NCBI GenBank assembly: GCA_041651115.1
Contig: JBAZJY010000002.1
Coordinates: 222,855 to 286,854, forward strand
Direction of reading: 5' to 3'
Length of the DNA stretch: 64,000 nt
Origin: Candidatus Omnitrophota bacterium
Lineage (GTDB): Bacteria; Omnitrophota; Gorgyraeia; Gygaellales; Profunditerraquicolaceae
Positions 18,622 through 63,057 of the stretch are shown here, piece by piece (within the stretch, counting starts at the first letter, position 1; each line of letters opens with the position of its first letter). Under the pieces are notes generated by a model. It was given only the letters and a program-made list of their open reading frames with translations, ran no database searches and was not told the DNA's origin. The position numbers were made by a program, and so were the translations under genes.

Positions 18622-20083
18622 AAAAATATTTTTTGCTTTAGTTTATACGGCATTGCTATTGACCTGTGCCTTTGCCGCGGAGGATACGCAGTCGCCGCTA
18701 GCGTTGAATACCCGGCTTTCCATTATCAGGAATATCGAGCCGATCAGGAGCAGCGACCGTATCCTTATTCTTGCCCCGCATCCGGATGATGAAGCAATAG
18801 GCTGTGCCGGGATCATCCAGGCTGCAGCGGCAGTTGGCGCGGACACGCATGTGCTGTATCTTACCAACGGCGATAATAATGAATTTGCTTTTATAGTTTA
18901 CGATAAAAGAATACCGGTCATGCCAAGCGAATTGGTCCGCTTAGGAGAGGTGCGGCGCAGCGAAGCAATAAAGGCGATGAAAACGTTTGGGGTTGACGAA
19001 TATAACCTTATTTTTCTGGGCTATCCGGATTTTGGCACTTTTCAGATCTTCAAGGATTTCTGGGAAGAAGGCAAGCCGTATAAGAGTATGCTCACGAGGA
19101 AGCGCAGTGTTCCTTATAAGAATGACCCGTCTTTCGGCGCTCCTTACATAGGTCAAAGTATTTTAATGGATTTAAAAAATACGCTGTTGCGCTATAAGCC
19201 GAATAAAGTTTTCGTCTCGCATCCGGCGGATTTAAACCGCGACCACAAAACCCTTTACCTTTTCCTGGAAATAGCGCTTGCCGATCTAACCGCTGAACTG
19301 CCGCGGCCAAGGGTATACCACTATTTAGTCCATTGGAGGGCCTGGCCAATGCCAAGGCATTATCACCCTGAACTCCCCCTTCTGCCGCCGGACCAGTTCC
19401 GGCCTACGGCTTCGGATATCCGTTGGTTAAAGTACAGGCTTACGCAGCAGCAGGTGAATAATAAATATAAGGCTATCCTTGTTTATAAAAGCCAAACCCA
19501 AGTCAGCGCATTTTATCTTTTAGCTTTTGGCCGTAAAAATGAATTATTTTCCATTTATCCCGATATAAACGTTGATATAGCGCCGCAAGCCGCGGAGAAA
19601 AAGAAAGTCTCGCTGAAAGACAGGATTGGAGAAAAGATCAGCGCGTTTTTCGGCTTAAGCGGAAATTTTGAGCAAGCAGGCCAGAAAGTCGCTGTTGTGC
19701 AAAGGCAGTGCCCGGTTGTTTACGGCAGTGAGGATAACTGCCTGTTGATCAGGATGTATAAAAGGAAAGATATCGGCCGCACGTTAAAAACCGTGATTTA
19801 TCTGTTTGGCTACAGCAGTAAAACTCCGTTTGGCCAAATGCCAAAGATACTTATACTTACCAAACACACTCGCTTTAAAATGCTCGACGGTAAAAAGGTG
19901 ATCGTTCCGGAAGGCATTGATATACAGATAAGCCCGGAAGAACTGACTGTTAAGATCCCCTTCAGCGTGCTGGGCGATCCGGATTTTATCCTCGCTTCTG
20001 TCCATGGCAATGGCGGGGTTTCCTGCCCGGATACGGTTAGTTTCCGGAAGATTAACATAAGGAGAAAAATCGATGGAATTTAA
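18614..20083 (+). CDS. PIG-L/LmbE-family N-acetylglucosaminyl deacetylase with about 220-aa C-terminal extension of unknown function
   Basis: Signal peptide, then LILAPHPDDEAIGCAGII...HPADLNRDH (PIG-L motifs). The C-terminal half has no recognisable domain. Confidence 0.6.
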   Translation: MRRKIFFALVYTALLLTCAFAAEDTQSPLALNTRLSIIRNIEPIRSSDRILILAPHPDDEAIGCAGIIQAAAAVGADTHVLYLTNGDNNEFAFIVYDKRIPVMPSELVRLGEVRRSEAIKAMKTFGVDEYNLIFLGYPDFGTFQIFKDFWEEGKPYKSMLTRKRSVPYKNDPSFGAPYIGQSILMDLKNTLLRYKPNKVFVSHPADLNRDHKTLYLFLEIALADLTAELPRPRVYHYLVHWRAWPMPRHYHPELPLLPPDQFRPTASDIRWLKYRLTQQQVNNKYKAILVYKSQTQVSAFYLLAFGRKNELFSIYPDINVDIAPQAAEKKKVSLKDRIGEKISAFFGLSGNFEQAGQKVAVVQRQCPVVYGSEDNCLLIRMYKRKDIGRTLKTVIYLFGYSSKTPFGQMPKILILTKHTRFKMLDGKKVIVPEGIDIQISPEELTVKIPFSVLGDPDFILASVHGNGGVSCPDTVSFRKINIRRKIDGI

Positions 20084-20555
20084 AAGCGTTAAGATCAAAA
20101 AACCCGAAGATGTAAATTTTATTTTTGGCCAGAGCCATTTTATCAAGACGGTGGAAGACCTGCACGAGGCGCTTGTCGCCAGTATGCCGGAAATAAAATT
20201 CGGTTTTGCTTTTGTGGAATCATCCGGCGCCTGTAAGATCAGGTCCGAGGGCAATGACCCGGAATTGAAAAAAATGGCGCAAGAGAATGCCATGGAAATC
20301 GGATGCGGCCACAGTTTTATCATATTTTTAAGGCAGGCATATCCAATCAACGTATTGAACGCGATCAAGGCGATCCCGGAAGTATGCGCGATCTATTGCG
20401 CCACTGCTAATGCCGTTGAAGTGGTTATCGCAGAATCTGATACGGGCCGCGGAGTAATGGGTGTCATTGACGGCTTAAAGCCTAAAGGCATTGAGTCTGA
20501 AGCGGATATAGCCTGGCGCAAGGGCCTATTGCGCAAGATCGGGTATAAATTATAA
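20073..20555 (+). CDS. Adenosine-specific kinase family protein (PF04008-like)
   Basis: 160 aa. N-terminus MEFKSVKIKKPEDVNFIFGQSHFIKTVEDLHEAL resembles this archaeal-type family as I recall it. Confidence 0.45.
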   Translation: MEFKSVKIKKPEDVNFIFGQSHFIKTVEDLHEALVASMPEIKFGFAFVESSGACKIRSEGNDPELKKMAQENAMEIGCGHSFIIFLRQAYPINVLNAIKAIPEVCAIYCATANAVEVVIAESDTGRGVMGVIDGLKPKGIESEADIAWRKGLLRKIGYKL

Positions 20556-20594
20556 TTCCTTGTAAATCTTAGGCGATTTGTTAGAATAGCGAAG

Positions 20595-21509
20595 ATGGAT
20601 GCCAAGAAAATACGTAAAAGCATATCGAGATTTTTCGCCTTTTTGGGCTTGAGCCTGTGTTCTTTGATGATCAAGGCTGTGCCAGGAAAGCTGATCTACG
20701 GGTTTGCCCGCAAGATCGCCAGCCTCGGCTATCGCTTTGCCGGCAAACACAGGCGTATTGCCATGGACAGCCTTTCCATTGCTTTTGGGAAAGAAAAAAC
20801 GCAGCAGGAAATAGAGCAGATTGCCCGCGACTGCTTTACGTTAATGGCAAAGTCCGCGATTGAGTTGATGTATCTTATGGATAAGCCGGAGTTATTAAAG
20901 CAGCGGGTATCAATAGAAGGCAAGAAAAACCTCGACGCGGTCCTGGCTAAGGGCAGGGGGGCAATCCTTGTCAGCGCGCATTTCGGAAATTTCCCGCTGC
21001 TTCTGGCGCGTTTTAGCCAGGAAGGATATAAGGCCAGCGGCATAATGCGTCCGATGCGCGACGCCAGAGTAGAAAAAATATTTTTAAATAAACGGGAAAA
21101 ATTCAAAGTAAAGACAATATACAGCCAGCCGCGCAAGGAGTGCGTTGATTCTACGATCCGGGCGCTGCGTAACAATGAGGTCGTTTTTATCCCGATAGAC
21201 CAGAATTTCGGCACTGCCGGGGTTTTTGTGGATTTCTTCGGCCAAAAGGCAGCGACTGCTACCGGCCCGGTGATATTTGCCGAAAGGACAGGGGCAGGCA
21301 TTGTGCCTTGTTTTATTGTCAGGCAGAAAGACGATACCCACAAAATAATCTGCGAGCCGGCGATAGACCTGGAAGAAGGCCGCGACCACCAGGAAACGAT
21401 AACCATAAATATACAAAAACTGACCAATGTAATTGAGGCCTATATACGTAAGTATCCCGCCGAATGGGGCTGGATACACCGTAGATGGAAAAGCAGGCCG
21501 AACAGCTAA
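20595..21509 (+). CDS. Lipid A biosynthesis acyltransferase (LpxL/HtrB-like, LPLAT superfamily)
   Basis: N-terminal TM segment and an acyltransferase core containing SAHFGNFPLL. Confidence 0.7.
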   Translation: MDAKKIRKSISRFFAFLGLSLCSLMIKAVPGKLIYGFARKIASLGYRFAGKHRRIAMDSLSIAFGKEKTQQEIEQIARDCFTLMAKSAIELMYLMDKPELLKQRVSIEGKKNLDAVLAKGRGAILVSAHFGNFPLLLARFSQEGYKASGIMRPMRDARVEKIFLNKREKFKVKTIYSQPRKECVDSTIRALRNNEVVFIPIDQNFGTAGVFVDFFGQKAATATGPVIFAERTGAGIVPCFIVRQKDDTHKIICEPAIDLEEGRDHQETITINIQKLTNVIEAYIRKYPAEWGWIHRRWKSRPNS

Positions 21510-21523
21510 AAAGGGAGGCAGGC

Positions 21524-21685
21524 ATGGGAGCTTTGTTAAAATCAGTTTTAGGGCTTATATTTTTGGCTTTAGGCATTTGGGCAATTATTGCTTTTCGCAG
21601 CGAACTTCTCGTGTTGATCAAAGGCTGCGTCGGCCCGCTCCTGATCCTCGCGGGCATTATTACCCTGGCGATCGCTAAAGACTAA
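21524..21685 (+). CDS. Small two-TM membrane protein
   Basis: MGALLKSVLGLIFLALGIWAIIAF...LLILAGIITLAIAKD. The ORF-track start at 21485 overlaps the upstream gene. Confidence 0.4.
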   Translation: MGALLKSVLGLIFLALGIWAIIAFRSELLVLIKGCVGPLLILAGIITLAIAKD

Positions 21686-21711
21686 GTAGATTACCGAGAC
21701 AGCTGGTTTGG

Positions 21712-23400
21712 ATGAATAATAAAATTATTCCTGCCGCACTGCTTATCCTCATCGGTTTCTTCGTTTTTTCCAATTATATATTTTTACAGCGCGTTGACTG
21801 GTTCCCCGATAAAGACGAGGCCTATCATGCGGCAATCAGCGCGGATATTTTCCAAAGCATAGCCAACGGCAGGGGCTTTAGCCAGCATTTATTAGACGCT
21901 AATTGGCCGCGCGGGTATCATTTAATATCGGTTTTGGTAAGGGCGGTTTTCGGCGACCGCCTTATTTTTATGACACCGACCCTGTTCCTTGTCATATTAT
22001 TATGCGCTACCTATAAGATCGGAGAGGCGGTTAAAGATAAAATGGCCGGCCTGCTTAGCGCATTGGTCGTTTCTCTTTATCCCGGGATATATGTTTCCTC
22101 CCGCCATTTTGATTATGAATTGGCGCAAACGGCAATGGCGGCGGTAATAATATACCTTCTAATGAAAAATGAACGCTTTATTGGGATAAGATATTCATTA
22201 TTATTCGGGACATTATTGGCAATCGGCCTTGTAATCAAACAAAGCATAATATTTTTTATTGCCGGGCCGTTTATCATAGCCTTCTATTATTTATTAAAGC
22301 CGTTTCCTAATAATAGGGTAAGGATAAGGAATTTATTGATCGCATTCTCTTTATGTTTTATCCTGGCCTTTTTTGGCTATTACCGCATATATTTCAGCCA
22401 TCCGGAATATATAGACCAGTGGGGCGTGCAGCGTTTATTTGTAAAAAACATATACGGAATTCGTCATGCCGGCCACTATCGTATAGGAGAGTTATTGTCT
22501 TCCGTAACTTTCTTAAAGGATTTTCATATCGGCATCCCGGGTATAATCATATTTCTTATCAGCCTGCCGGCCTTTTTATTCAAAAACAAAAACCTTAAAT
22601 ATAAATTGTTTCTTACTTCCTGGCTGGCCATTCCATTTTGTATTTTCAGCCTCTCAACAATGAAGTTACCGCATTATTCCATCGGATACTTGCCTGCCTT
22701 TGCGGTCATTACGGCTGTGGGGATAACTTATCTCCGGCCCAAAGCCATAGCCATATGGCTGGTAGCCGGTTTTTTCAGCATAAATTTTATTTTCTATACA
22801 TGTTACACGTTTAATATATTCCCCGGATTAGAGAATCGTTTGATATCAAAAATGCTATCCGCAAATTGGGGAACCTGGGCAATGGGGGCTGCCAGGGATA
22901 CCAATCCCGCCTATGAAGCCGCTGATTACCTGAGCAAGATTGCCGGAAATAAACGCGCCGTATTCGGTACGGTGCATTATCCCCAGATAGATCCGGATTC
23001 CCGGGATGATGCGTGGTTTGCGGTATGCTTTAATTCTCTAATGCGGCTGCGCAGTAGTAAATACGAAGCCGTAGACCTCGTTGTTTACGGCAATCCCAAA
23101 TTGACCCGTAAGTGCGATTTTTTCGTCTGTTTTTCTTCCGTTCCCGGCCGCAACTGGCTGGATTACGCTACTTTTTCCCGGTGTTTGCTGGAAGGGATGA
23201 AATACGCCGCAGAATTTCCTTATATGGGAACATACCTTCTGGGCGATGATGATACCCCGGCTTATGTAGAAGGCCGGATCTATATATCCCGGAAGACAAT
23301 AGAGGACCTGGAAAATTATTTTCCTAATCTGACGCTGCTGAAAGAAATAAAGATCGGCGAGGTAACCGCCTCTATTTACAAAAATAAGCGGATAGAATAA
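21712..23400 (+). CDS. GT-C glycosyltransferase, ArnT/PMT_2 family (polyprenyl-phosphate-sugar dependent)
   Basis: 562 aa polytopic protein. First periplasmic loop carries DKDEAYHA, matching the DE(x)RY motif of ArnT/PMT. Confidence 0.75.
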   Translation: MNNKIIPAALLILIGFFVFSNYIFLQRVDWFPDKDEAYHAAISADIFQSIANGRGFSQHLLDANWPRGYHLISVLVRAVFGDRLIFMTPTLFLVILLCATYKIGEAVKDKMAGLLSALVVSLYPGIYVSSRHFDYELAQTAMAAVIIYLLMKNERFIGIRYSLLFGTLLAIGLVIKQSIIFFIAGPFIIAFYYLLKPFPNNRVRIRNLLIAFSLCFILAFFGYYRIYFSHPEYIDQWGVQRLFVKNIYGIRHAGHYRIGELLSSVTFLKDFHIGIPGIIIFLISLPAFLFKNKNLKYKLFLTSWLAIPFCIFSLSTMKLPHYSIGYLPAFAVITAVGITYLRPKAIAIWLVAGFFSINFIFYTCYTFNIFPGLENRLISKMLSANWGTWAMGAARDTNPAYEAADYLSKIAGNKRAVFGTVHYPQIDPDSRDDAWFAVCFNSLMRLRSSKYEAVDLVVYGNPKLTRKCDFFVCFSSVPGRNWLDYATFSRCLLEGMKYAAEFPYMGTYLLGDDDTPAYVEGRIYISRKTIEDLENYFPNLTLLKEIKIGEVTASIYKNKRIE

Positions 23401-23419
23401 GAAGCAAGAGAAGGCCTTT

Positions 23420-25108
23420 ATGAATAAAAAATACGCTCCGCTATTGCTTGTTTTCATCATCGTTTTTTTTATTGCCTCCAATTATACGTTCACTCAGAAT
23501 AGCGATTGCCTTTTTGATAAGGACGCGACTTACCACGCGGAAAGCGGCGCGTATATTTTCCAAAGCCTGGCCAACGGTAAAGATTTTTTCAACGCCTTAA
23601 CGGAGGATTACCATTGGCCGCCCCTCTACCATGTAATCGCGGCATTATTACGGATCGTCTTCGGCGTTAATTTCGTTTTTATGACTTCTACGCTTTTTCT
23701 CGTTATATTGCTATATGCCACCTATAAGATCGGTGAACTCCTTAAAGATAAAACGGCCGGTTTATTAAGCGCGTTAATAATTTCTTTTTATCCATCCATT
23801 TATATCAGCTCGCGCTGCTACTATCTGGAATTAGCCCAGGCGGCAATGACCGCTTTAATATTATATTTTTTAATGCGGCTGGATAATTTTACCGGCCTTA
23901 AATATTCATTGGCATTCGGCTTGTTATTGGCGGCAGGCTTGCTTATAAAGCAGAATATAATTATTTTTCTCATCGGCCCGTTTTTTGTGGCTTTATACTA
24001 TTTATCAAGGCATCCTCTGCAGAATAAGATCAAGGCGCGCAACCTGGCGCTTTCGCTTTTTATTTGTTTCTTCCTGGCGTTTTTGATCTATTATAAGATA
24101 TATCTTTTTGAGCCGTTAAACATTACTTCCCGCGGCTTAGCCAGGTTTTTAACTAATAATGTAGACGGTACTCCCTGCACCGACTGCTATCAGCCGCGGG
24201 TGTTATTATTCCATTTGATCGCCTTAAAGAAATTCCACATCGGCATCCCGGGGCTAGTCCTGTTTTTCATCGGCCTGCCTTATTTTCTGAAAAAAAACGA
24301 AAAACATGAATATAAGATATTCCTTCTTTATTGGTTTCTTGTGCCTTTCTGCATTCTGACCGCTACGACTGCAAAGTTCCGCCAGTATTCCTTTTCATAC
24401 CTGCCTGTTTTTGCGATAGTCGCGGCCGTAGGCATAACTTATATCCGGCCAAAGTTTATAAAACAGGCCCTGGTAGCTGCTTTTCTGATCTTCAGCTTTC
24501 TGCCGTATGCCTGTTTTACTTTTGACGTATTGCCGAAACTTAAATTAGCCCTGATGCCCACCAATCCCGATAAATGCTTTTATCTATATTGGGGAACTAC
24601 CAATAGCAGGGCGTCAAACCCCGCTTATCAGGCTGCGGAATATTTGGGTAAAATAATCGGGCCAAGGCCGGCAACAATCGGCGTAGTCTTTTATCCCACT
24701 GATGAGCAGCCGCCGCAATATACCTCTTATTTGAATGCGCTGCTGCGTTTTCGTCACGGGGGATATAAAGTAATTGATTTCATCCGCCTCGGTAAAGAGA
24801 GGCAGCTTGCCGCGTGCGATTATTTCATATTTATCCATTCTCTTGACCGCGGCGATAAATGGCTGGACTACGAAACGTTCGTGTATGACCTGGCGCAGGC
24901 AAACGAACTTGGAAGCATTAAAAATGGCTGGCAGGATAAATATGTATTGACCCAGCAAGACAGGCCGCCGGGCAGGGAAGGATTTTTATACATACCAAGG
25001 AGCAAAATTGAGGCCATCGCCGGATATTTTCCCAATTTAAGGTTAGTCAAGAGGATAGGGACGGAAACCAGGGAATTCCTGATTTATAAAAATGAACGCC
25101 AAAGATAA
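23420..25108 (+). CDS. GT-C glycosyltransferase paralog, ArnT/PMT_2 family
   Basis: 562 aa tandem paralog of the preceding gene. The motif here reads DKDATYHA (E replaced by A). Confidence 0.75.
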   Translation: MNKKYAPLLLVFIIVFFIASNYTFTQNSDCLFDKDATYHAESGAYIFQSLANGKDFFNALTEDYHWPPLYHVIAALLRIVFGVNFVFMTSTLFLVILLYATYKIGELLKDKTAGLLSALIISFYPSIYISSRCYYLELAQAAMTALILYFLMRLDNFTGLKYSLAFGLLLAAGLLIKQNIIIFLIGPFFVALYYLSRHPLQNKIKARNLALSLFICFFLAFLIYYKIYLFEPLNITSRGLARFLTNNVDGTPCTDCYQPRVLLFHLIALKKFHIGIPGLVLFFIGLPYFLKKNEKHEYKIFLLYWFLVPFCILTATTAKFRQYSFSYLPVFAIVAAVGITYIRPKFIKQALVAAFLIFSFLPYACFTFDVLPKLKLALMPTNPDKCFYLYWGTTNSRASNPAYQAAEYLGKIIGPRPATIGVVFYPTDEQPPQYTSYLNALLRFRHGGYKVIDFIRLGKERQLAACDYFIFIHSLDRGDKWLDYETFVYDLAQANELGSIKNGWQDKYVLTQQDRPPGREGFLYIPRSKIEAIAGYFPNLRLVKRIGTETREFLIYKNERQR

Positions 25109-26138
25109 AAAACCGGCTGTATATTGGCTGGTTTATTTTTTATTCATTTGGCTTCTGCTTGAGTTTGGCTGCCGGATTATTTTATTCCGGATTTTTCCGG
25201 AAAACATCCCGGGCTTTGAATCCTCATCCGGCTGGCGTATCGCATGGTTGCGCAACCATTCCGGCCATAAAAATAATCCGAAAGCCCTGGCTGCTTTTTT
25301 ACCGCCTGCGGCTTACGATGCTACCAAGGGGTGGGCATTGAGGCCGGGTTTGAAAAATTATGCGTGGGGCGGGAAGTTTACGACCAACTCAAAAGGCCTG
25401 CGCGGAGAAAAAGAATATGCCTATGGTAAGGATGCGGCCAGGAAGCGCATCATTATCATCGGCGATTCTTATGTTATGGGCGCGGAAAATAACGATGACC
25501 AGATATTCCCGTTTTTTTTAAGCCGGATGCTGCCGGAATACGATATATTGAATTTCGGGGTCGGAGGATACGGCCATGACCAGATGTTGATCAAACTTAA
25601 AGAGGAGGCAGCGGGTTATCATCCGGATATGGTCATCCTGCTGTATCTTCCAGACGACAACTCCAGAAACCTTCTGGAGTTCCGCGATTATGCCAAACCG
25701 CGCTATATCTTTAAGGATGATAAGCTCAGGCTTACTAATGTGCCTGTTCCTCCACCCGAGGAAATTATCCGCCAGGACTATCGCCACTCTTATTTTCTTG
25801 ACCTTTTAGGATTTATACTATATCGGATCAAGTTTAATTCCGGGGCAATGCACGGAGAAACGACGCGGATCACCAGAGCCATTATAAAAGAAATGGGGCA
25901 GGCCTGTTCGCAAGTAAAGGCGCAGTTTGTTATTGCAGCCTTGGATAATGACCCGGAAAATGCGAAAATCATCCCGTCAAAAATAAACAACGGCTATGTC
26001 CCGTGCATATTTTTAAATATCAACGGCTATCCTGAAAAATATTTTGCGGGGCATTGGAGCCCTGAAGGACATCGGATAGTAGCGCAACAGATAGCTGAAG
26101 GGCTTAGCAAGCATGGCTTGCTTAACCGCGAAGAATAA
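25092..26138 (+). CDS. Membrane-anchored SGNH/GDSL-like hydrolase or acyl-esterase family protein
   Basis: N-terminal TM segment, then IIIIGDSYVMG (GDS motif) and GVGGYGHDQMLIKLKEE. Confidence 0.55.
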   Translation: MNAKDKKPAVYWLVYFLFIWLLLEFGCRIILFRIFPENIPGFESSSGWRIAWLRNHSGHKNNPKALAAFLPPAAYDATKGWALRPGLKNYAWGGKFTTNSKGLRGEKEYAYGKDAARKRIIIIGDSYVMGAENNDDQIFPFFLSRMLPEYDILNFGVGGYGHDQMLIKLKEEAAGYHPDMVILLYLPDDNSRNLLEFRDYAKPRYIFKDDKLRLTNVPVPPPEEIIRQDYRHSYFLDLLGFILYRIKFNSGAMHGETTRITRAIIKEMGQACSQVKAQFVIAALDNDPENAKIIPSKINNGYVPCIFLNINGYPEKYFAGHWSPEGHRIVAQQIAEGLSKHGLLNREE

Positions 26139-26178
26139 ATATTGTATAAAATTCCCATTAGTGCGTTATAATTAAGCA

Positions 26179-27171
26179 ATGCAGAAAAAAGCAAAGATCT
26201 TGATCACTGGCATCGGTTCTTCAAACGCGCTCACTTTTCTTTGCGGGCTGCGCAAGGAAAAAAGGAAAAGTTTTCAGATCTGCGGCGCGGACATTTACGA
26301 GCGGGATTTTTGCGCAGGCGCGCAATTTTGCGATAAATTTTTTAGGGTGCCGGCATGTAATAAGCCTTCTTTTATCGGTGTTTTACTGGGGATCTGCCGC
26401 AGGAATGCAATTGATGTTTTGGTCCCCATGTTGGACGAAGAAATGTTATTGATATCCGGCCAGCACAAGGACTTCCTTGAATGCGGCACGCGTGTGCTGC
26501 TACCCGAAGAAGAAATAATCAAAACCTGCTTAAATAAGCTTAAGCTGTATGGATTCCTTGGGCGTAATGGTTTTCCTGTCCCGCGCATTTATACCAGTGA
26601 TCAAGTGCCTCAAAGTTTTCCGGTTATCCAAAAGCCGGTTATTGGCAGGGGATCGCACGACATAACTATTATCCACGATCGGCAGGAGTTTAAAAAAGCC
26701 AGAGGCAAAACCGGCTATCTGATCCAAAAGTATATAGAAGGCCGGGAATTCACCGTTGATACCTTGTCAAATTTAAACGGTAAAACGCTGGCTGCGGTTC
26801 CGCGTTTAAGGCTGGAGATAAGAGACGGTAAGTCCATTAAAGCGCAGACCGTGCGCCATAAGGCGATCGAAGGCCTGGCCAGGGAAATATGTAATGCCTT
26901 AAAAATGACTGGCCCGGCATGCCTGCAATGCAGGTTAGGCCGGAACAACAGGCCTTATTTTTTTGACGTCAATCCCCGCATAGGCTCTGCTTCCATTTTA
27001 ACCATTGAAGCAGGAGTTAATATCCCGTTATTGGCCGTGCAAAACATCCTGGGCAGGAACATAGATAAAGCTCCCGCTAAATTCATGGCGAATGTGGTTA
27101 TGCTGCGTTATTGGGGTAATATTTTTACATATCCGAAGAGGCAAATGGATATGTCCGGAGGAATAGCCTAA
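26179..27171 (+). CDS. ATP-grasp domain protein (CarB/PylC-like)
   Basis: 330 aa with an ATP-grasp fold (VIQKPVIGRGSHDITII...YLIQKYIEGREFTVDTL...FFDVNPRIGSAS). Confidence 0.7.
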   Translation: MQKKAKILITGIGSSNALTFLCGLRKEKRKSFQICGADIYERDFCAGAQFCDKFFRVPACNKPSFIGVLLGICRRNAIDVLVPMLDEEMLLISGQHKDFLECGTRVLLPEEEIIKTCLNKLKLYGFLGRNGFPVPRIYTSDQVPQSFPVIQKPVIGRGSHDITIIHDRQEFKKARGKTGYLIQKYIEGREFTVDTLSNLNGKTLAAVPRLRLEIRDGKSIKAQTVRHKAIEGLAREICNALKMTGPACLQCRLGRNNRPYFFDVNPRIGSASILTIEAGVNIPLLAVQNILGRNIDKAPAKFMANVVMLRYWGNIFTYPKRQMDMSGGIA

Positions 27172-27172
27172 A

Positions 27173-28114
27173 ATGAAACTAGCCACCGTTATCATTCCCG
27201 TATTTTATAATGCCGAAAGCCTGCCTGCGCTTTATGAACAAACCAACGCCGCCATAAAGGATATCCCGGATGTACGTTTTGAGTTAATCTTTGTAGATGA
27301 TGGTTCAGGCGATAATTCCTTTGATGTGCTCTCCGGCATTGCCCGCAATGACAGCCGGGTGCGCATAATAAAGCTAACCCGTAATTTCGGCGCTTTTGCC
27401 GCTTGCTTTGCAGGATTAAGCTATGCCAAGGGCGATTGCGCTATTTTTATGGCGGCAGACCTGCAGGATCCTCCGGAAATATTATCCAAGCTTATTGAAA
27501 AATGGAAAAACGGCAGTGAAATAGTTTACGCGGCCAGGCAAAAGCGGGAAGAGGCGAAGTTAAAGATCTTCTTTTCCAATATCTTTTACTTTATATTCCG
27601 GAAAATTGCCTTAAAAGACATGCCGCCCACAGGTTTTGATTTTGTCTTGATCGGCAGGAAGGTTATTGATGTCCTGCTTTCCGCCAAGGAAAAAAATTCT
27701 TCCTTGATCGGGCAGATACTCTGGACCGGTTTTAAAGCGGATTCCGTCCCCTGCATAAAAAAGAAACGTTACTTTGGCCGTTCCCGTTGGGTATTAAGCA
27801 AAAAGATCAAGTACTTGATTGATTCGTTGCTTTCGTTCAGTTATTTCCCTATAAGGGCAATATCCCTGATCGGCATTACAATGGCCATGTTAAGTTTTAT
27901 TTTCGGGTTATATATTATTTCCCAGAAGATTTTTCTGGGGATCCCGGTCCCGGGCTTTGCGTCTATATTGGTCATAATCCTTTTTACTTCCGGCATCCAG
28001 ATGTTGATGCTGGGAGTGCTTGGTGAATACCTTTGGCGTAACCTTGAAGAAACAAGGGGCAGGCCGATGTTCGTGGTTGAGAGGCTGGCCGGGTTTGATC
28101 ACGCGCAAAAATGA
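27173..28114 (+). CDS. GT2 polyprenyl-phosphate sugar transferase (ArnC/GtrB/DPM1-like)
   Basis: ATVIIPVFYNAESLP...LIFVDDGSGDNS...FMAADLQDPPE followed by two C-terminal TM segments. Confidence 0.8.
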   Translation: MKLATVIIPVFYNAESLPALYEQTNAAIKDIPDVRFELIFVDDGSGDNSFDVLSGIARNDSRVRIIKLTRNFGAFAACFAGLSYAKGDCAIFMAADLQDPPEILSKLIEKWKNGSEIVYAARQKREEAKLKIFFSNIFYFIFRKIALKDMPPTGFDFVLIGRKVIDVLLSAKEKNSSLIGQILWTGFKADSVPCIKKKRYFGRSRWVLSKKIKYLIDSLLSFSYFPIRAISLIGITMAMLSFIFGLYIISQKIFLGIPVPGFASILVIILFTSGIQMLMLGVLGEYLWRNLEETRGRPMFVVERLAGFDHAQK

Positions 28115-29532
28115 AAGTCTTGCTTATTGAGCCTCCGCCATTAGGCCGCTACGGCAACCAAAGATCAAAAGGGGCGTTCGGCAACCTTAAGGCCGATATA
28201 CGCTGGCCACCGATTGACCTGGTGGTGATCGCGGGCCATTTAAGAAAAAATAATATTGAGGCTGCGATCATTGACGCAGGCGGAGAAAGGCTGTCTGCGG
28301 ATGCGTTATTGGGCAGGGTATCTGCGGTTAAAGCCGGTTTAACGCTGATCAATACTTCAACTACGACGATCTATCAAGACTTAGAAATTGCGCGGCTGGT
28401 CAAACAGGCATCCGGCCGGAGCTTATTGGGCGTAATCGGCGTGCATATTATGGCATTACCGAAAGAGACTTTGGCTCTTTGCCCTGAATTGGATTTTGCT
28501 GTTTTCTCCGAGCCGGAAATCCCGATCCTTAACCTTTGCAAGGCAATGGATATGGCATTGGTAAACGGCATCTGTTTTCGCAAAGGCAAAGATATATTGA
28601 TGAATCCCGCTCAGGAGCCGGTTAATGATCTTGATGAATTAGGCATTCCTGCTCATGACCTTCTGCCTTTGGGCGTTTATAAAGAGCCGCAGATGAAAAG
28701 AAAGCCGTTGGCCGTTACCATGGTGTCCCGGGGCTGCATTAACCGCTGCGTGTTCTGCAGCGCTGCCTTTTACGGGGCCTACCGCCTGCGTTCGGTAGAA
28801 GATGTCATGGAAGAGCTGCGCTGGATCACGAGAGCGCTGGGGGTCAGGGAGCTTAAGTTTTATGATGACGGGATCACTTATAACCGCAGTTGGGCAGAGC
28901 AGCTTTTTATGGCCATGGCCAACGAAGGCATAGATCTGACATGGAACGCCAATATCCGCGCAGATTCCATTGATTATCAACTGGCGTTGTTGATGAAGCA
29001 AGCCGGCTGCCATACGGTTAATATTGGCTTAGAGAGCGGCAGCCAAAAGATCCTGAATAATGTCCGTAAAAATGTTACCATTGAAACCATGCGCCGCGCG
29101 GTTTTAGATTGTAAAAAGGCAGGGCTTGAGGTGTGCGGATATTTTGTATTTGGCCTGCCCGGGGAGACCCGGCAGAGCATCAAGATGAGCATTGAGCTGG
29201 CAAAAGAGCTTGACCTTGACCTGGTTACTTTTAATACGGCAACTCCCCATCCGGGAACGGATTTTTTCACGTATCTGGAAGGCAACGGGTTTTTGCGCAG
29301 TAATGATTGGTCGCAATATGATACTAACGGCCTGCCGGTTTTTGATTACCCGGGCCTATCAGCAAGCGCAATGTATGATCAGGCCATGGCTGCTTATAGG
29401 AAATTCTATCTGCGGCCGCGTTTCTTTTTTAAAAGGTTCAAAAGGATAAGCTCTTTGAACGAGTTAAAGAATACGGCTGGAAATTTCATTGCTTTTATGA
29501 ACAATTTTTTATTTAAAAATGCGCGGCCGTAA
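28111..29532 (+). CDS. B12-binding (class B) radical SAM enzyme
   Basis: N-terminal cobalamin-binding domain and a radical SAM core with CINRCVFCSA (CxxxCxxC). Confidence 0.8.
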   Translation: MKVLLIEPPPLGRYGNQRSKGAFGNLKADIRWPPIDLVVIAGHLRKNNIEAAIIDAGGERLSADALLGRVSAVKAGLTLINTSTTTIYQDLEIARLVKQASGRSLLGVIGVHIMALPKETLALCPELDFAVFSEPEIPILNLCKAMDMALVNGICFRKGKDILMNPAQEPVNDLDELGIPAHDLLPLGVYKEPQMKRKPLAVTMVSRGCINRCVFCSAAFYGAYRLRSVEDVMEELRWITRALGVRELKFYDDGITYNRSWAEQLFMAMANEGIDLTWNANIRADSIDYQLALLMKQAGCHTVNIGLESGSQKILNNVRKNVTIETMRRAVLDCKKAGLEVCGYFVFGLPGETRQSIKMSIELAKELDLDLVTFNTATPHPGTDFFTYLEGNGFLRSNDWSQYDTNGLPVFDYPGLSASAMYDQAMAAYRKFYLRPRFFFKRFKRISSLNELKNTAGNFIAFMNNFLFKNARP

Positions 29533-30187
29533 ATACTTTAAGCCGTCTTACTGGTGTGATGCTTACTTTGATCCCGGCCATCCGGCGCATTGGTTCTACC
29601 GCCGGAAGATGGACGCGATCATTTCCCTGATCCCGGCAGGCGTAAAAGAGATATTAGATTGCGCTACGGCAGCCGGGCTATTGCCGCACCTTCTGGAAAA
29701 CAAAGGCTACAGTGTTGACGGTTTTGATATTATGGAAGAATTTGTGGATTATGGCAGGCAAAAGGTCAAAAGCGGCTTGATCTATGTAGATGACATCACC
29801 AATTTTTCCGCCCCGAGAAAAAAATATGACCTTATCTTATGCATTGATATCTTACAAAGATTCCCCAGAGAAACAAGGGAAGTGATCTATCAGGGGATTG
29901 CTAATCACCTAAGGCCGGGAGGGTATCTCTTATTGTGCAATCCTTCAAGGCTATGGTTCAGGCTTAATATTTTTTGGCGTTTTTTCAGAAAGCTTATCTT
30001 TGCCGGAATGATCTTTCAGGACGAAGTTTGCGGGCGCAATGTAGACGCGGCAAAAAAAGTAAAATATTTTGATGTTGACAAAAATTTAAACCTGGAGATC
30101 CCGGCGCGCCTCTTTAACGGCACGGCAGGTAAAAAAATCGTTTTTAATCTTTTAAATGTAGCGGTCGCGCAAAGAAAAGATGGCTAA
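29519..30187 (+). CDS. Class I SAM-dependent methyltransferase
   Basis: Rossmann-type MTase motif ILDCATAAGLLPHLL...DGFDI. The true start may be the internal Met near 29609. Confidence 0.65.
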   Translation: MRGRKYFKPSYWCDAYFDPGHPAHWFYRRKMDAIISLIPAGVKEILDCATAAGLLPHLLENKGYSVDGFDIMEEFVDYGRQKVKSGLIYVDDITNFSAPRKKYDLILCIDILQRFPRETREVIYQGIANHLRPGGYLLLCNPSRLWFRLNIFWRFFRKLIFAGMIFQDEVCGRNVDAAKKVKYFDVDKNLNLEIPARLFNGTAGKKIVFNLLNVAVAQRKDG

Positions 30188-30608
30188 GAAAATAAGCGGT
30201 TGCAAATTACTGCGTTTACCAAAGATTTATGATGTGAGGGGAAATTTGACGTTCATTGAATCCAAGAGGCATGTTCCTTTTGATATCAAGCGCGTCTACT
30301 ATATATACGATATACCCGGTGGGGCATACCGGGGGGCGCACGCGCATAAAAATTCCTTGGAATTGATAATTCCGCTTGCCGGATCTTTTGATATCATGCT
30401 TGATGATGGCCGCAGCCAGAAAGTAATCACATTGAACATGGCCTATTACGGCCTCTATGTGCCGAATTTGATCTGGCGGGAGTTGTTTAATTTTTCATCG
30501 GGCGCTACTTGTCTTGTGCTTGCTTCCGCCCCATTCTCCGAAAAAGATTATATACGTAACTATGACGATTTTATCAAGTGGCAATCGCGCATACCGAGGA
30601 GGAAATAA
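30180..30608 (+). CDS. FdtA/QdtA-like dTDP-4-keto-6-deoxyhexose 3,4-ketoisomerase (WxcM-like cupin)
   Basis: 142 aa. GCKLLRLPKIYDVRGNLTFIE...PFDIKRVYYIYDIPGGAYRGAHAHK closely matches the FdtA family. Confidence 0.7.
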   Translation: MAKKISGCKLLRLPKIYDVRGNLTFIESKRHVPFDIKRVYYIYDIPGGAYRGAHAHKNSLELIIPLAGSFDIMLDDGRSQKVITLNMAYYGLYVPNLIWRELFNFSSGATCLVLASAPFSEKDYIRNYDDFIKWQSRIPRRK

Positions 30609-32632
30609 TGAAACCATACAAAAGGGGAGAGATTCTGATCAACAGCAGGTTGCGGGGAGCTGTCCTAAAAGATGCTGATTTTCGCGAAGCGCGGCTGATT
30701 ACGGTTGATCTGAAAAACGCCGTGCTTGACAATGCGGTTATGGAAAACGCCAAGCTTCTGCGGGTAGATATGGATAATGCTTCGCTGGCAAGCGTTAATC
30801 TGGAGGCCGCAGAATTTTACGGGGTAAGTATGCGCAGCGCGAATTTACGCAGCGCGAATTTGAACAACATAAAGTCGCGGGGGACGAACCTGGAAAGGGC
30901 CGATCTCTCTGGTGCTTCTGCCCGGAAAGCCGACCTTAAAGGGGTTATACTACGTTCCGCCTGCCTTAACGGAATCAACGCTCATGGGGCGAATTTTTCC
31001 GGAGGAAATTTATCGGAAGCAACCATAAAAAAGGCAGATCTGACAGGATGTGATTTTTCCGGGGCAGACCTGTCTGACGCTGACCTGACCGGCGCAATTG
31101 TGGCAGGAGCAGATTTTTCCGGGGCGAATCTCTCGGACGCGGTGATTAAAGGCGTTGATTTCAGGAAAGCGAAAGTAGAAGGGGCAATATTCTTCCGCGC
31201 CTTATGGTTGACGCAGGAGCAGGCGCAATACCTGGAGGCAAATAACAGCCTGGTTTTTACCCCGTTCAAAAGAAAATGGGACAGGGCCGTGCAAAGCATT
31301 GCTGCCAGCCGCCGGCTGCAGGCACTTTTGTTGATTCTTGCGATTGCATTTGTCTGGCTTAATATTTCCTATTTTTCCGATCCACGGCATAGAAACAGTG
31401 ATGTTGTTCGGAAGATGGCGCAAAAAAAGCGCGCGCAAGGTAAACTCAAGAAAGCAAAGGAGCTATATGGAATATTAGCTGAACGTAATATTATCAGCGA
31501 AGCAGACGATCCTTTTCCTCAATTTGAGATCGCCGCGATATGCCGGCAAGAAGGCGATTTTAAGGCAGCATTAGCCGTATTAAAAAGCCTTTTACAGCTG
31601 CCGGACCTGTCTGTTTATTCTCTTTCTTGTATATATGGAGAGTTGGGGCAGACTTACCGCGAAATGAATGACCTGGAACAGGCCAGAAAAGCATTTCAAC
31701 TTTGTATTGAAAAGGATTCCACCGACCAGGACAGGCTATACTGGGCAAAGGTGAGCTTAGCAGATATATTGCGCCAGGAAAACAAGCGGGAAGAGGCAAT
31801 CAAAGGATACGAGGCTATTATTAATGAATACAAGGGTTCAAGCCCGAAAGTCGGCAGCGCCTATGCTTCTATCGGACATATTTATCGTGAATTAAATAAA
31901 TCCGATCAAGCCAAAAAAGCATTTCAGACCAGCCTCGAGAATGATCTTACTAACCGCGAACAGGTATATTGGGTAAAGATGAGCTTAGCGGATATATTGC
32001 GCCAGGAAAACAAGCGGGAAGAGGCAATCAAAGGATACGAGGCTATTATTAATGAATATAAAGAATCCCGCGACAAGGCAGCCAATACTTATGCTGCTGT
32101 GGGCCATACTTACCTTGAATTAAGCGAGCTTGAACAAGCAAGAAAAGCATTTCAACTCAGCCTTGAAAAAGACCCCATCGGCGCTGCTGATCCGGAGCGG
32201 GTATACTGGGTAAAGATGAGCCTGGCCGATATCCTGCGCCAGGAAAATAAATACCCGGAAGCAGCTAAGGCGTATGAAAATATCATCAATGAATACAAAG
32301 AATCAAATTCGAAGGCCAGTAATGCTTATTCTGCTATTGGCTACATATATCGGGAAACGAATAATCCCGATCAAGCTAAAAAAGCATTCCAGCTCAGCCT
32401 TGAGAAGGATACCACTGATCCGGAGCGCACATATTGGGCAAAGATGAGCCTGGTTGATATTATGCGTCAGCAAGGCGCGCATGATGAGGCGCTTAAGGCA
32501 TACGAAAAATTGCTTGATGAATATAAAGATTCGCAGGATAAGGTCTCTCATATTTATACGAACATTGCCCAGGCATACCGGGAAATGGGCAGAGAAGCAG
32601 ACGCGGAAGCGATCATGGAAAAACACGGTTAG
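30608..32632 (+). CDS. Pentapeptide-repeat / single-TM / TPR-repeat protein with near-identical internal repeats
   Basis: About 200 aa of pentapeptide repeats (ADLSGA, ANLSDA...), then a TM helix (LQALLLILAIAFVWL), then five 68-aa repeats of type YWAKVSLADILRQENKREEAIKGYEAIINEYK. Two copies are about 95% identical at the DNA level. Confidence 0.7.
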   Translation: MKPYKRGEILINSRLRGAVLKDADFREARLITVDLKNAVLDNAVMENAKLLRVDMDNASLASVNLEAAEFYGVSMRSANLRSANLNNIKSRGTNLERADLSGASARKADLKGVILRSACLNGINAHGANFSGGNLSEATIKKADLTGCDFSGADLSDADLTGAIVAGADFSGANLSDAVIKGVDFRKAKVEGAIFFRALWLTQEQAQYLEANNSLVFTPFKRKWDRAVQSIAASRRLQALLLILAIAFVWLNISYFSDPRHRNSDVVRKMAQKKRAQGKLKKAKELYGILAERNIISEADDPFPQFEIAAICRQEGDFKAALAVLKSLLQLPDLSVYSLSCIYGELGQTYREMNDLEQARKAFQLCIEKDSTDQDRLYWAKVSLADILRQENKREEAIKGYEAIINEYKGSSPKVGSAYASIGHIYRELNKSDQAKKAFQTSLENDLTNREQVYWVKMSLADILRQENKREEAIKGYEAIINEYKESRDKAANTYAAVGHTYLELSELEQARKAFQLSLEKDPIGAADPERVYWVKMSLADILRQENKYPEAAKAYENIINEYKESNSKASNAYSAIGYIYRETNNPDQAKKAFQLSLEKDTTDPERTYWAKMSLVDIMRQQGAHDEALKAYEKLLDEYKDSQDKVSHIYTNIAQAYREMGREADAEAIMEKHG

Positions 32633-32694
32633 CGCTGCGGGCTTTACTATTATTCAATTTTTGGTATAATACACTTCAAAAGGAGATATGTAGA

Positions 32695-33261
32695 ATGGAA
32701 GCAATTTTTAAGAAAGATGTTGTTTTGAATAAAACCGCCTGCCGGGTGATCGGCGTAGGCGTATTCATGACCCTTACTGCCCTGGGCGCTTTTGTGCGCA
32801 TACCTTTACCCTTTACTCCTGTGCCGCTTACCATGCAGACAATGTTTGTGTTATTGGCAGGGGCATTTTTAGGCAGCAAACTTGGGGCTGCGTCGCAGTT
32901 AGGCTATATTTTACTTGGACTATCAGGGTTACCTATATTCACCGGCGCAGGCAGCGGGATGTTGTATATCCTGGGCCCTACCGGAGGATATTTGTTAGGT
33001 TTTGTCCTTGCCGGATTATTCATCGGCAGGGCCGTAAAATTATGCCCTGCAAGTCCGGCAGCCGTATTCGCGGTTTTTTGCCTGGCAGACCTGGTGCTGC
33101 TTATGAGCGGAGCGCTCTGGCTTAAGTTCAGCCTTGGTTTAACCATGAATAAAGCATTGTTGGCCGGAGTTGTGCCGTTTATTGCCGGCGATATAATTAA
33201 AGCATTTACCGCAACACTCATCTATTTAAAATCAAGAGAACGGATAGCCGAAGTTTTCTAA
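32695..33261 (+). CDS. bioY: Biotin transporter BioY
   Basis: 188 aa BioY family (MQTMFVLLAGAFLG...GPTGGYLLGF). Confidence 0.85.
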   Translation: MEAIFKKDVVLNKTACRVIGVGVFMTLTALGAFVRIPLPFTPVPLTMQTMFVLLAGAFLGSKLGAASQLGYILLGLSGLPIFTGAGSGMLYILGPTGGYLLGFVLAGLFIGRAVKLCPASPAAVFAVFCLADLVLLMSGALWLKFSLGLTMNKALLAGVVPFIAGDIIKAFTATLIYLKSRERIAEVF

Positions 33262-33281
33262 TCCCTCCAAAAGAGATAAAA

Positions 33282-34367
33282 ATGCGCAGATGGAAGAAGA
33301 AAATATTGTTTTTTATTCTTTACTGCGTTTTTTTGCTTGTCTGCTGCGAAGCGGCAATACGATTGCTGATCTACGTGGATAGCCCTTTTAAGAAAAGATT
33401 GCTTTTTCTCGATAGTAATGACTCTTCGCGCCGGCTGCGTTTCATAGAAAGGCGGACAAGATACGGCAGGCCGGAACGCAGTTATAATAAGTATGACCCT
33501 CTCAGGGGATGGGCATTAAGGCCTGATCTTAGGGGTTTGGTTGTGTCGTACACAGAAGTGATTAATACTAATTCAAAAGGCATTAGGGGTATTGTTGAAT
33601 ATGACTACGAAAAGCCGGAAGGCAAAAAGCGGATACTGGTATTGGGGGATTCGTTTACCTTCGGCGTAGGAGTGAAGGATAATGAAACCTATCCCTATTT
33701 TTTGCAGGAAATGCTCCCCGGTGCCGAAGTGATAAATTTCGGCGTACCCGGTTATGGCCATGACCAGATGTTGATATATTTAAAGGAAGAAGGGATAAAA
33801 TACAAGCCCGATATAGTTATTTTGGGGTTTTTAACCGGAGATATGCCGCGGAATATATGGGCTTTTATAGATTACGCAAAGCCCAATTTTAAAGTCATTA
33901 ACGGCAGATTAACCCTGATGAATTCTCCGGTGCCATCAGTTGAAGTAATGTTAAAAAAAGAATTTTATAGGCTGAAAGTGCTGGATATATTGAATGCGAT
34001 ATATAAAGAATCAAGATGGAAAAGGGGCTTGGACGCCGATGAAATGTATAAGGTCACGCAGGCGATGCTGGTAGAGATGGTTAAAACAATCAAAGCTATG
34101 GGCGCTCTGCCCGTATTTGTCTATCTGCCTGATGGGTTAGATACAGAAGATGAAACCCGTGATGATTTCTTTTCAACATTCTGTTTATCGCAGAAAGTGG
34201 ATTGCTTAAGCCTGCGGAGCGTTTTTAATGAGCGCCTGGGCAAGGGAGAGACCTTGCGCGCAGGGCCAGGCAGCCATTATAGCATCTGGGGAAATCAGGT
34301 CATAGCCGGTGAGATCAAGGGTTATTTGGCTGAAAAGACTTTGCTTGACAACCCGGCAGGGCTATGA
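33282..34367 (+). CDS. Membrane-anchored SGNH/GDSL-like protein (paralog of the 25092..26138 gene)
   Basis: ILVLGDSFTFGVG...GVPGYGHDQMLIYLKEE, the same architecture as the 25092 gene. Confidence 0.55.
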   Translation: MRRWKKKILFFILYCVFLLVCCEAAIRLLIYVDSPFKKRLLFLDSNDSSRRLRFIERRTRYGRPERSYNKYDPLRGWALRPDLRGLVVSYTEVINTNSKGIRGIVEYDYEKPEGKKRILVLGDSFTFGVGVKDNETYPYFLQEMLPGAEVINFGVPGYGHDQMLIYLKEEGIKYKPDIVILGFLTGDMPRNIWAFIDYAKPNFKVINGRLTLMNSPVPSVEVMLKKEFYRLKVLDILNAIYKESRWKRGLDADEMYKVTQAMLVEMVKTIKAMGALPVFVYLPDGLDTEDETRDDFFSTFCLSQKVDCLSLRSVFNERLGKGETLRAGPGSHYSIWGNQVIAGEIKGYLAEKTLLDNPAGL

Positions 34368-62562: not shown

Positions 62563-62563
62563 T

Positions 62564-63019: not shown

Positions 63020-63057
63020 CATTGACAAGCCGCGGGTATTAAGTTAAGATAATTTTA

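Follow-up and report, generated by a model that had tools for sequence, protein, structure and literature searches.

A probable lipid-carrier-dependent glycosylation cassette inserted in a conserved gene backbone of a Candidatus Omnitrophota genome

Gene content of the locus

The stretch of DNA analysed here, referred to as the window, is a 64-kb piece of a Candidatus Omnitrophota metagenome-assembled genome, and all coordinates are window positions. As judged by gene-order comparison with relatives, it contains an accessory cassette of nine genes (21712–32632, about 11 kb) and, as a separate second insertion, one further gene at 33282–34367. The cassette is on balance probably a lipid-carrier-dependent periplasmic glycosylation system that delivers a tailored sugar. 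It begins with two genes for 562-amino-acid (aa) GT-C glycosyltransferases, GT-C A (21712–23400) and GT-C B (23420–25108), and continues with a membrane-anchored SGNH/GDSL protein of 348 aa (SGNH1, 25092–26138; weak Lipase_GDSL_2 and AlgX matches), an ATP-grasp ligase of 330 aa (26179–27171; ATPgrasp_Ter, ATP-grasp_3 and PylC-like_N domains, PRK12767-like), a GtrB/ArnC-family polyprenyl-phosphate glycosyltransferase of 313 aa (GT2, 27173–28114; matching GtrB sll0501), a B12-binding (class B) radical S-adenosylmethionine (SAM) enzyme of 473 aa (28111–29532; Radical_SAM and B12-binding domains), a class I SAM methyltransferase of 222 aa (29519–30187; Methyltransf_25, Methyltransf_11 and Methyltransf_23 domains), an FdtA-type nucleoside diphosphate (NDP)-hexose 3,4-ketoisomerase of 142 aa (30180–30608; PF05523), and a protein composed of pentapeptide repeats, a single transmembrane (TM) helix and TPR repeats (PentaTPR, 30608–32632; Pentapeptide match of 132 bits in addition to TPR families). 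Outside the cassette, the left junction is formed by an LpxL-like acyltransferase (20595–21509; PF03279, 171 bits) and a 53-aa protein with two TM helices (21524–21685; ribosome-binding site AAGGGAGG), and the right junction by the biotin transporter component BioY (32695–33261; PF02632, 129 bits). The gene inserted beyond BioY encodes a second membrane-anchored SGNH/GDSL protein of 361 aa (SGNH2, 33282–34367; Lipase_GDSL_2, 35.8 bits). All of these genes are on the plus strand.

An earlier reading, made from the letters of the window alone (the sequence-only reading), had treated the genes from LpxL to SGNH2 as one island. Every gene on its list was recovered on the plus strand at its coordinates by an open reading frame (ORF) check, and the family calls were upheld by domain and profile annotation. 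The small membrane protein on the list exists, its true ORF being the 53-aa frame at 21524–21685, and BioY, although lying inside the interval, had been left out. The island had also been described as contiguous and co-directional, which is true of nearly all window genes, arranged on the plus strand in a tight array from SecA/Lnt onward; as all substantial genes of the window share this strand, co-directionality is no evidence for a unit here, and the argument carries little weight.

From the ATP-grasp gene through the PentaTPR gene, successive genes are very tightly coupled, at distances of 1, −4, −14, −8 and −1 nucleotides (nt), the last value assuming a PentaTPR start at ATG 30608; the stop of GT2 and the start of the radical SAM gene share 4 nt. 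Upstream of this series, GT-C B and SGNH1 overlap, end to start, by 17 nt. The PentaTPR ORF opens with GTG at 30578, and its likely start is ATG 30608, which is preceded by the ribosome-binding site GAGGAGG and overlaps the FdtA stop as TAATG. A consensus promoter scan remained at background level, with one promoter-like site in front of BioY (32643–32670), and the excess of terminator-like signals was mostly within genes. No riboswitch or other Rfam family was found within the cassette; the sole Rfam family in the window is a thiamine pyrophosphate riboswitch (RF00059, 62.6 bits, above the gathering score) at 63053–63163 on the plus strand.

Insertion into a conserved Omnitrophota backbone

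LpxL is a core gene of Omnitrophota; its protein has 2078 homologues at E<1e-40, and identities within the phylum are as a rule about 70%. Two relatives, L019 (LpxL 74% and SecA 72% identical to those of the window) and L020 (LpxL 70%), have the gene order PIG-L, AdoK, LpxL, small ORF, BioY, DUF5666-like, (HAD) and CsgG, with zero cassette genes. In both, the small ORF and BioY are separated by gaps of 170–175 nt with no called gene between them, and SGNH2 is missing between BioY and the DUF5666-like gene. A third relative, L018 (LpxL 88%), shows the identical backbone order up to the small ORF, where its contig ends. Since LpxL, the small ORF and BioY are contiguous in relatives without the cassette, all three are backbone genes and were ruled out as island members. 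The left boundary that the sequence-only reading had placed at LpxL was therefore wrong, LpxL and the small ORF being conserved without the cassette in L018–L020, and BioY in L019 and L020. The 53-aa protein is kept right after LpxL in L017 and L018 (77% identity), L019 (55%) and L020 (56%), and may be an LpxL partner.

In the closest relative, L017, which was aligned with window positions 20073–22224, LpxL is 93%, AdoK 83% and the small ORF 77% identical to the window proteins. Directly after the small ORF follows an orthologue of GT-C A, the N-terminus of which is just 59% identical. These identities suggest that the transferase diverged fast or was replaced. The cassette has a GC content of 0.452 compared with 0.48 in the backbone, with the minimum in the GT-C genes (GT-C A, 0.427). 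Neither notable direct or inverted repeats nor an integrase were found at the cassette flanks, a search of viral contigs returned no cassette relatives, and a PADLOC check for defence systems gave weak generic-fold matches only.

Two neighbouring genes were considered as functional partners and rejected. The HAD gene at 35058–35609 is 58% identical to the backbone HAD of L020 and 25–27% identical to the HAD proteins that accompany the radical SAM orthologues elsewhere (see below), and the upstream PIG-L gene, a candidate HpnK-like deacetylase, is conserved in relatives without the cassette. The product of the latter gene belongs to the PIG-L family, is 489 aa long and has a signal or anchor at its N-terminus. 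Together with an adenosine-specific kinase (PF04008), it is encoded at 18614–20555 on the plus strand; the two are conserved neighbours of Lnt and LpxL across Omnitrophota, the kinase being an odd member of an envelope-lipid gene array.

Farther downstream, the window contains a second rearranged or inserted block at 37100–60500. In L019 and L020, ThiI-NFACT and a 336-aa radical SAM gene (window 60557–62562) stand directly after CsgG, and in the window about 23.5 kb separates CsgG from ThiI-NFACT. This block includes genes for STAS-PilZ, Fur, NifX/Mrp-like Fe-S, NikR, OprB porin, CbiMQO, ZIP, OtsA-OtsB-DUF5752-TreT and FeoB, and has a GC content of 0.40–0.45 with a GC skew above 0.2 at 38–48 kb. 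The trehalose genes of L020 are located upstream of PIG-L instead.

Donor-side enzymes

The glycosyltransferase GT2 aligned over its full length with GtrB sll0501 (215 bits, residues 5–310 on 29–334) and scored 144 bits against ArnC. Among NCBIfam models PgfS was the best (212.4 bits, cut-off 500), and ArnC gave 166.6 bits against an equivalog cut-off of 529. The protein has the GtrB-type layout of a GT-A domain, a juxtamembrane region and two C-terminal TM helices, the latter forming a hairpin at residues 225–285. At residues ca. 90–100 (window 27440–27465) it carries the motif AADLQDPP, which is shared by all six orthologues (L001, L003, L004, L007, L013 and L014), where GtrB and ArnC have DADLQ[DN]PP. 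The DXD motif thus has Ala throughout in place of its first Asp, with the second Asp and the Gln kept, and this AAD signature may reflect another donor.

The radical SAM enzyme matched PF02310 at 34.2 bits (cut-off 32.1) and PF04055 at 88.8 bits, and has the motif CINRCVFC at residue 209, with C209, C213 and C216 invariant in 19 homologues. These domains and the CxxxCxxC motif place it among the class B, B12-binding enzymes, and its use of cobalamin is predicted. HpnJ was the best family match (246 bits over nearly the full length, cut-off 577.6), followed by BchE, and the best PDB match was the diol dehydratase AprD4. HpnJ and BchE are non-methylating class B enzymes, the substrate of HpnJ being hopanoid-linked glucosamine (PMC9204698). 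In the pathway of HpnI, HpnK and HpnJ, the latter contracts the lipid-linked glucosamine to a cyclitol. The cassette enzyme resembles HpnJ as its best family match and in its position beside a glycosyltransferase that makes a lipid-linked sugar, and differs in its score, in that no hpn or shc hopanoid genes were found in the 64-kb window, and in that its carrier would be a polyprenyl phosphate.

The FdtA protein matched PF05523 at 174.4 bits (WxcM C-terminal-type cupin) and WlaRB (5tpu) at 128 bits, with the HxH catalytic motif kept and aligned as AHAHKN; FdtA (2pa7) and QdtA were also matched. The alignment of the His pair was inspected for WlaRB 5tpu, the only catalytically characterised homologue with an alignment shown. 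FdtA belongs to the routes to 3-acetamido-3,6-dideoxygalactose (Fuc3NAc) and 3-acetamido-3,6-dideoxyglucose (Qui3NAc), which the cassette resembles in this one strong match; in the cassette, it is accompanied by a methyltransferase and a radical SAM enzyme instead. RmlA, RmlB (4,6-dehydratase), the FdtB/QdtB aminotransferase, the FdtC/QdtC acyltransferase and nucleotidyltransferases are absent across the whole 64-kb window. The sequence-only reading had reported the lack of FdtB, FdtC and a nucleotidyltransferase in its island, which holds for the entire window, and its conclusion that the genes do not match the known Fuc3NAc and Qui3NAc routes agrees with the missing partners.

No specific match among solved structures was obtained for the methyltransferase. 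Its link to the radical SAM enzyme is best seen in L014, where GT2 and the radical SAM gene flank a methyltransferase orthologue of 41% identity. Radical SAM–methyltransferase fusions (P0017 and P0027) were also considered as a Rosetta-stone link and downgraded, as the fused domains are undetectably or remotely similar to the window methyltransferase.

Related loci of the donor module

Orthologues of the radical SAM enzyme at 60–67% identity formed about 16 clusters, and the family reaches uncultivated lineages such as Elusimicrobia, the candidate phyla radiation and DPANN at about 30% identity. Six distinct genomic contexts of radical SAM orthologues were compared, from an Omnitrophota genome (L001, on a contig shared with L008), a Thermodesulfovibrionales genome (L007) and four metagenome contigs (L003, L004/L005, L013 and L014); the collection scans had found two genome loci and three metagenome loci. 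In all six, a GT2 orthologue (56–63% identity) is located a few kb upstream of the radical SAM orthologue (63–67%). Four of them (L001, L003, L004 and L014) include an ATP-grasp orthologue (46–51%) upstream of GT2, with HAD and usually DegT genes intervening. The trio of ATP-grasp, GT2 and radical SAM genes thus occurs, at 46–67% identity, in Omnitrophota, in Thermodesulfovibrionales and on unassigned metagenome contigs. The sequence-only reading had proposed an unusually tailored sugar, and this proposal is supported by the recurrence of the translationally coupled module in unrelated lineages and by the methyltransferase orthologue of L014.

The radical SAM orthologues are further accompanied by a short-chain dehydrogenase/reductase (SDR) gene and a HAD gene (each in 6/6 loci), a DegT aminotransferase gene (5/6), and a PMT_2 GT-C gene within 10 kb (4/6). 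In the three scored cases (one in L014 and one each of two in L007), the SDR had the NDP-hexose 4,6-dehydratase as best match, and the DegT scored as a 4-aminotransferase of PseC/LegC/ArnB type. On these scores, the intermediate made in the related loci would be an NDP-4-keto-6-deoxyhexose, the kind of compound on which FdtA acts. Judged by its gene content, the window cassette resembles a version of these loci with FdtA and a methyltransferase in place of the dehydratase, HAD and aminotransferase. A DUF386 (YhcH/YjgK/YiaL) gene is present at the far end of the window (62522–63019, plus strand), and in L004, L005 and L007 such a gene follows the PMT_2 GT-C at a distance of a few genes, which may be coincidence.

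In Campylobacter jejuni HS:2 capsule amidation, the PLP (pyridoxal phosphate) transaminase Cj1437, the ATP-dependent amidoligase Cj1438C and the HAD phosphatase Cj1435 act together (PMC11800397). The related loci are alike in carrying ATP-grasp, HAD and PLP aminotransferase genes beside GT2, the likeness being one of enzyme type only, and their DegT proteins score as sugar 4-aminotransferases. Of these enzymes the window has only the ATP-grasp ligase, its HAD at 35058 being backbone, and by this analogy the amidation precedent suits the related loci better than the window.

Transfer-side proteins

GT-C A and GT-C B are 45% identical to each other. Their PMT_2 scores are 26.7 and 34.1 bits, respectively, against a cut-off of 26.1, with no PF02366 match and no MIR domain in either protein; neither had an ArnT match in NCBIfam, and phmmer searches against PDB gave nothing. 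A profile of 60 GT-C sequences matched one PDB entry significantly, ArnT 5ezm (E = 2e-4), over the TM core. An AlphaFold2 model of GT-C B from the 60-sequence alignment reached a predicted local distance difference test (pLDDT) value of 91.6, whereas a 5-sequence alignment had given an unusable pLDDT of 54. With this model, Foldseek matched STT3/oligosaccharyltransferase (OST), ArnT, PglB, ALG9/12 and Pmt4 at 12–16% identity. The best E-values were those of STT3/OST, and the best TM-score that of ArnT 5f15 (0.56/0.57; 13–14% identity); Pmt4 and Pmt1/2 were weaker structural matches than ArnT or STT3. The first loop contains the motif DKD(E/A)xYHA, which reads DKDEAYHA in GT-C A, with D35 nearly invariant and H39 invariant. 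According to the model, GT-C B has the GT-C_A fold with a first-loop acidic motif, which is common to all GT-C_A proteins and not specific to ArnT.

A word-index search with GT-C B found five proteins. An exhaustive search of 1.84 billion representatives returned 16 clusters at E<1e-30, the majority of which match over most of the length, and about 1000 weaker matches that mostly cover the TM core only. To judge from these searches, the two GT-Cs belong to a rare subfamily. In addition to the 59% orthologue of L017, GT-C A has orthologues in L012 (46%) and L011 (50%), and the PentaTPR-linked GT-Cs of L009 (41%) and L015 (38%) are nearer to GT-C B than to GT-C A. GT-C genes stand in tandem in L011 and L016, a B12 radical SAM gene is directly upstream of a GT-C gene in L006 (250-nt gap), L011 and L012, and in L012 an SGNH2 orthologue (45%), a B12 radical SAM gene and a GT-C gene follow one another with overlaps. 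The order GT-C followed directly by a PentaTPR orthologue was found in L009/L010 and L015 (43–45% over 560–640 residues), and two of nine long distant homologues (P0224 and P0263) are GT-C–TPR fusions.

The TM helix of PentaTPR is at residues 241–268. By the positive-inside rule, and by the position of the TPR domain after the last TM helix in the fusions, the pentapeptide domain is predicted to be cytoplasmic and the TPR domain periplasmic. We know of no precedent for a pentapeptide-repeat domain on such a TPR partner. At 31646–32566 the gene contains four tandem 228-nt repeats, each encoding a 76-aa double-TPR unit, with 61–74% DNA identity, which suggests repeat expansion inside the gene. 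The two SGNH proteins are 32% identical, and each has a GDS motif and an N-terminal TM anchor; SGNH1 scores below and SGNH2 above the Pfam cut-off.

Proposed function and alternatives

What was observed directly is to which families and folds the proteins belong, how the genes are coupled, which neighbourhoods are conserved, and that the cassette was inserted into the backbone. From this we infer the chemical steps as follows. The delivered sugar is probably derived from a 6-deoxyhexose. It would be tailored in the cytoplasm, probably from an NDP-4-keto-6-deoxyhexose made by genes elsewhere in the genome, by the FdtA-type ketoisomerase, the class I methyltransferase and the ATP-grasp ligase, which would attach an acyl or aminoacyl group in amide or ester linkage. 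As no nucleotidyltransferase, 4,6-dehydratase or aminotransferase is encoded in the 64-kb window, both the FdtA substrate and the amine or carboxylate with which the ATP-grasp ligase works would come from elsewhere. The GtrB-family GT2 would then put the sugar on undecaprenyl phosphate (Und-P). The radical SAM enzyme, which is translationally coupled to GT2 and occurred with it in every locus compared, would modify the sugar by C-methylation or by rearrangement or deoxygenation, plausibly in lipid-linked rather than nucleotide-linked form, as HpnJ does with hopanoid-linked glucosamine. After flipping, one or both GT-Cs would transfer it to a periplasmic acceptor, which the predicted periplasmic TPR domain of PentaTPR would select or present, and the two membrane-anchored SGNH proteins would add or remove an O-acyl group.

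The closest known arrangements are the three-component Gtr system of O-antigen modification (GtrA flippase, GtrB Und-P-glucose synthase and GtrC GT-C) and the Gram-positive CsbB/YfhO and GacI/GacL pairs. Like Gtr, the cassette pairs a GT2 that matches GtrB over its full length, TM hairpin included, with transferases of GT-C fold, and is a variably present accessory unit with a fast-evolving transferase (in L017, GT-C A at 59% against LpxL at 93%). The core architecture of a polyprenyl-phosphate sugar GT2 and GT-C transferases, which the sequence-only reading had recognised, is thus borne out by the GtrB-type match and the GT-C fold. Unlike Gtr, the cassette has two GT-Cs of a rare subfamily and no GtrA-like flippase, its GT2 carries AADLQDPP in place of the DAD motif, and no phage association was found among viral contigs. 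It further adds the ATP-grasp ligase, B12 radical SAM enzyme, methyltransferase, FdtA, TPR partner and SGNH proteins.

Several observations weigh against a single carrier-dependent system. The PMT_2 GT-Cs beside the radical SAM orthologues are just 14–18% identical to those of the window, and what joins the donor and transfer sub-modules is therefore a similar architecture, since their parts are not all orthologous. The cassette genes include no GtrA, Wzx or SMR-type flippase, nucleotidyltransferase, 4,6-dehydratase and aminotransferase genes are lacking from the cassette as well as from the rest of the 64-kb window, and FdtA was found in no related locus examined. The search for homologous islands that the sequence-only reading had proposed recovered the sub-modules, whereas the complete gene set was found in no other locus examined, its pairwise links recurring separately. 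The comparative samples were small (6 and 7 distinct loci).

As the acceptor of such a system we tentatively place first a surface glycan or the outer part of lipopolysaccharide, for which the Gtr-like logic, the fast-evolving and variably present transferase, the faint AlgX likeness of the SGNH protein and the occurrence of TPR proteins in polysaccharide machines make a plausible case. An envelope protein comes next as a real possibility, made plausible by the PMT/OST-like fold, the TPR partner and the GT-C–TPR fusions. Lipid A would be an unlikely acceptor, and any other acceptor is less likely again.

The alternative that survives best, which we regard as possible but doubtful, is protein O-glycosylation of the protein O-mannosyltransferase (PMT)/TMTC or Pgf type, in which the TPR protein would be a substrate-binding subunit or PentaTPR itself the substrate. 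Both Pfam matches of the GT-Cs are to PMT_2, and the structural search gave its best E-values with STT3/OST and matched PglB and Pmt4 too; the PMT_2 scores are nevertheless marginal, and PF02366 and MIR domains are lacking. TPR domains bind proteins, and GT-C–TPR fusions exist, an architecture that is also that of the eukaryotic TMTC O-mannosyltransferases. The cassette is similar to TMTC1-4 and to uncharacterised bacterial PMT_2-TPR proteins in joining a PMT_2-type GT-C with a non-cytoplasmic TPR domain, and differs from these fusions in that its TPR domain is on a separate single-pass protein with a predicted cytoplasmic pentapeptide domain. The adjacency of GT-C and PentaTPR genes, kept in two more distinct loci (L009/L010 and L015), favours a joint role of this kind. 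TPR proteins such as AlgK, PelB and BcsC, on the other hand, act on polysaccharides in periplasmic export and modification, and the weak AlgX-type match of SGNH1 likewise argues against a protein substrate. The top NCBIfam model of GT2 is PgfS, the system of which (PgfS/PgfM1/PgfE/PgfM2) has two membrane GT-C-like proteins, but the score of 212 bits is far from the equivalog cut-off of 500.

The sequence-only reading had seen in the ArnC-like and ArnT-like genes an architecture for decorating lipid A or periplasmic acceptors, and had suggested a search for an association with resistance to polymyxin or cationic antimicrobial peptides. As a lipid A modification system, the cassette would attach a sugar that is cationic or unusual in another way to the phosphates of lipid A, and resistance to such peptides would change. 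This framing did not hold, and the explanation is an improbable one. In its favour, ArnT gave the best global superposition of the GT-C model and the sole significant PDB match of the GT-C profile, the cassette adjoins LpxL, and Arn-like logic is visible in the related loci, where an ArnB-like aminotransferase and an SDR stand beside GT2. The general order of the Arn pathway, with nucleotide-sugar tailoring, transfer by a GT2 to Und-P, lipid-linked modification (ArnD) and transfer by a GT-C, also resembles that proposed for the cassette. The order LpxL, small ORF and BioY is, however, found in cassette-less relatives too, so that the adjacency to LpxL marks an insertion site. GT2 is closer to GtrB and far under the ArnC equivalog cut-off, the GT-Cs are 13–14% identical to ArnT and match no ArnT model, and equivalents of ArnA, ArnB, ArnD, ArnE and ArnF are absent from the window, which has no formyltransferase/decarboxylase, aminotransferase, deformylase or SMR-like flippase. 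The SDR of the related loci is 4,6-dehydratase-like and not a UDP-glucuronic acid decarboxylase. To our knowledge, TPR partners and SGNH proteins belong to no lipid A modification system, which also counts against this explanation.

It is similarly unlikely that the cassette is a mosaic of two or three unrelated modules (GT-C/TPR, GT2/radical SAM and FdtA/methyltransferase) in a gene-dense, co-directional genome, an explanation for which speak the plus-strand orientation and short gaps of the entire window, the backbone gene BioY between PentaTPR and SGNH2, the absence of the full set from any other locus with FdtA only in the window, and the non-orthologous GT-Cs beside radical SAM orthologues elsewhere, and against which stand the joint absence of the nine genes of 21712–32632 from relatives, the separate recurrence of the links GT2–radical SAM, ATP-grasp–GT2, methyltransferase–radical SAM, radical SAM–GT-C, SGNH–radical SAM–GT-C and GT-C–PentaTPR, and the fact that we know of no role of a GtrB-type GT2 without a downstream GT-C-type transferase.

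Within the carrier-dependent glycosylation system, a more specific and rather speculative proposal is that the trio of ATP-grasp ligase, AAD-variant GT2 and radical SAM enzyme of the HpnJ/BchE neighbourhood constitutes an undescribed sugar route. The radical SAM enzyme would remodel the carrier-linked sugar by ring contraction to a carbocycle, by deoxygenation or by C-methylation, and the rare GT-C pair would deliver it together with PentaTPR, the latter acting as a transmembrane partner that links the cytoplasmic and periplasmic steps.

Implications

No account of this combination of genes came up in the literature searches. The scheme of an Und-P-sugar synthase and a GT-C is known; new are the partnership of ATP-grasp ligase, AAD-type GT2 and B12 radical SAM enzyme, the rare GT-C subfamily and the PentaTPR partner. 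Present evidence does not warrant an annotation of the locus as a determinant of lipid A modification or polymyxin resistance. If the proposed function is true, the familiar scheme of Und-P-sugar and GT-C, best known from the glucosylation of O-antigen and the aminoarabinosylation of lipid A, also exists in a widespread, more elaborate form that has not been studied, with tailoring of the carrier-linked sugar by a cobalamin radical SAM enzyme and an ATP-grasp ligase. Such a form would represent new chemistry for bacterial surface glycans and a new type of substrate for class B radical SAM enzymology. Omnitrophota are ultra-small, possibly host-associated bacteria without a cultured model, and for them the cassette would be a variable surface-decoration locus. 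As the transferase is far more diverged than its neighbours (59% against 93%), this locus may bear on cell–cell or phage interactions.

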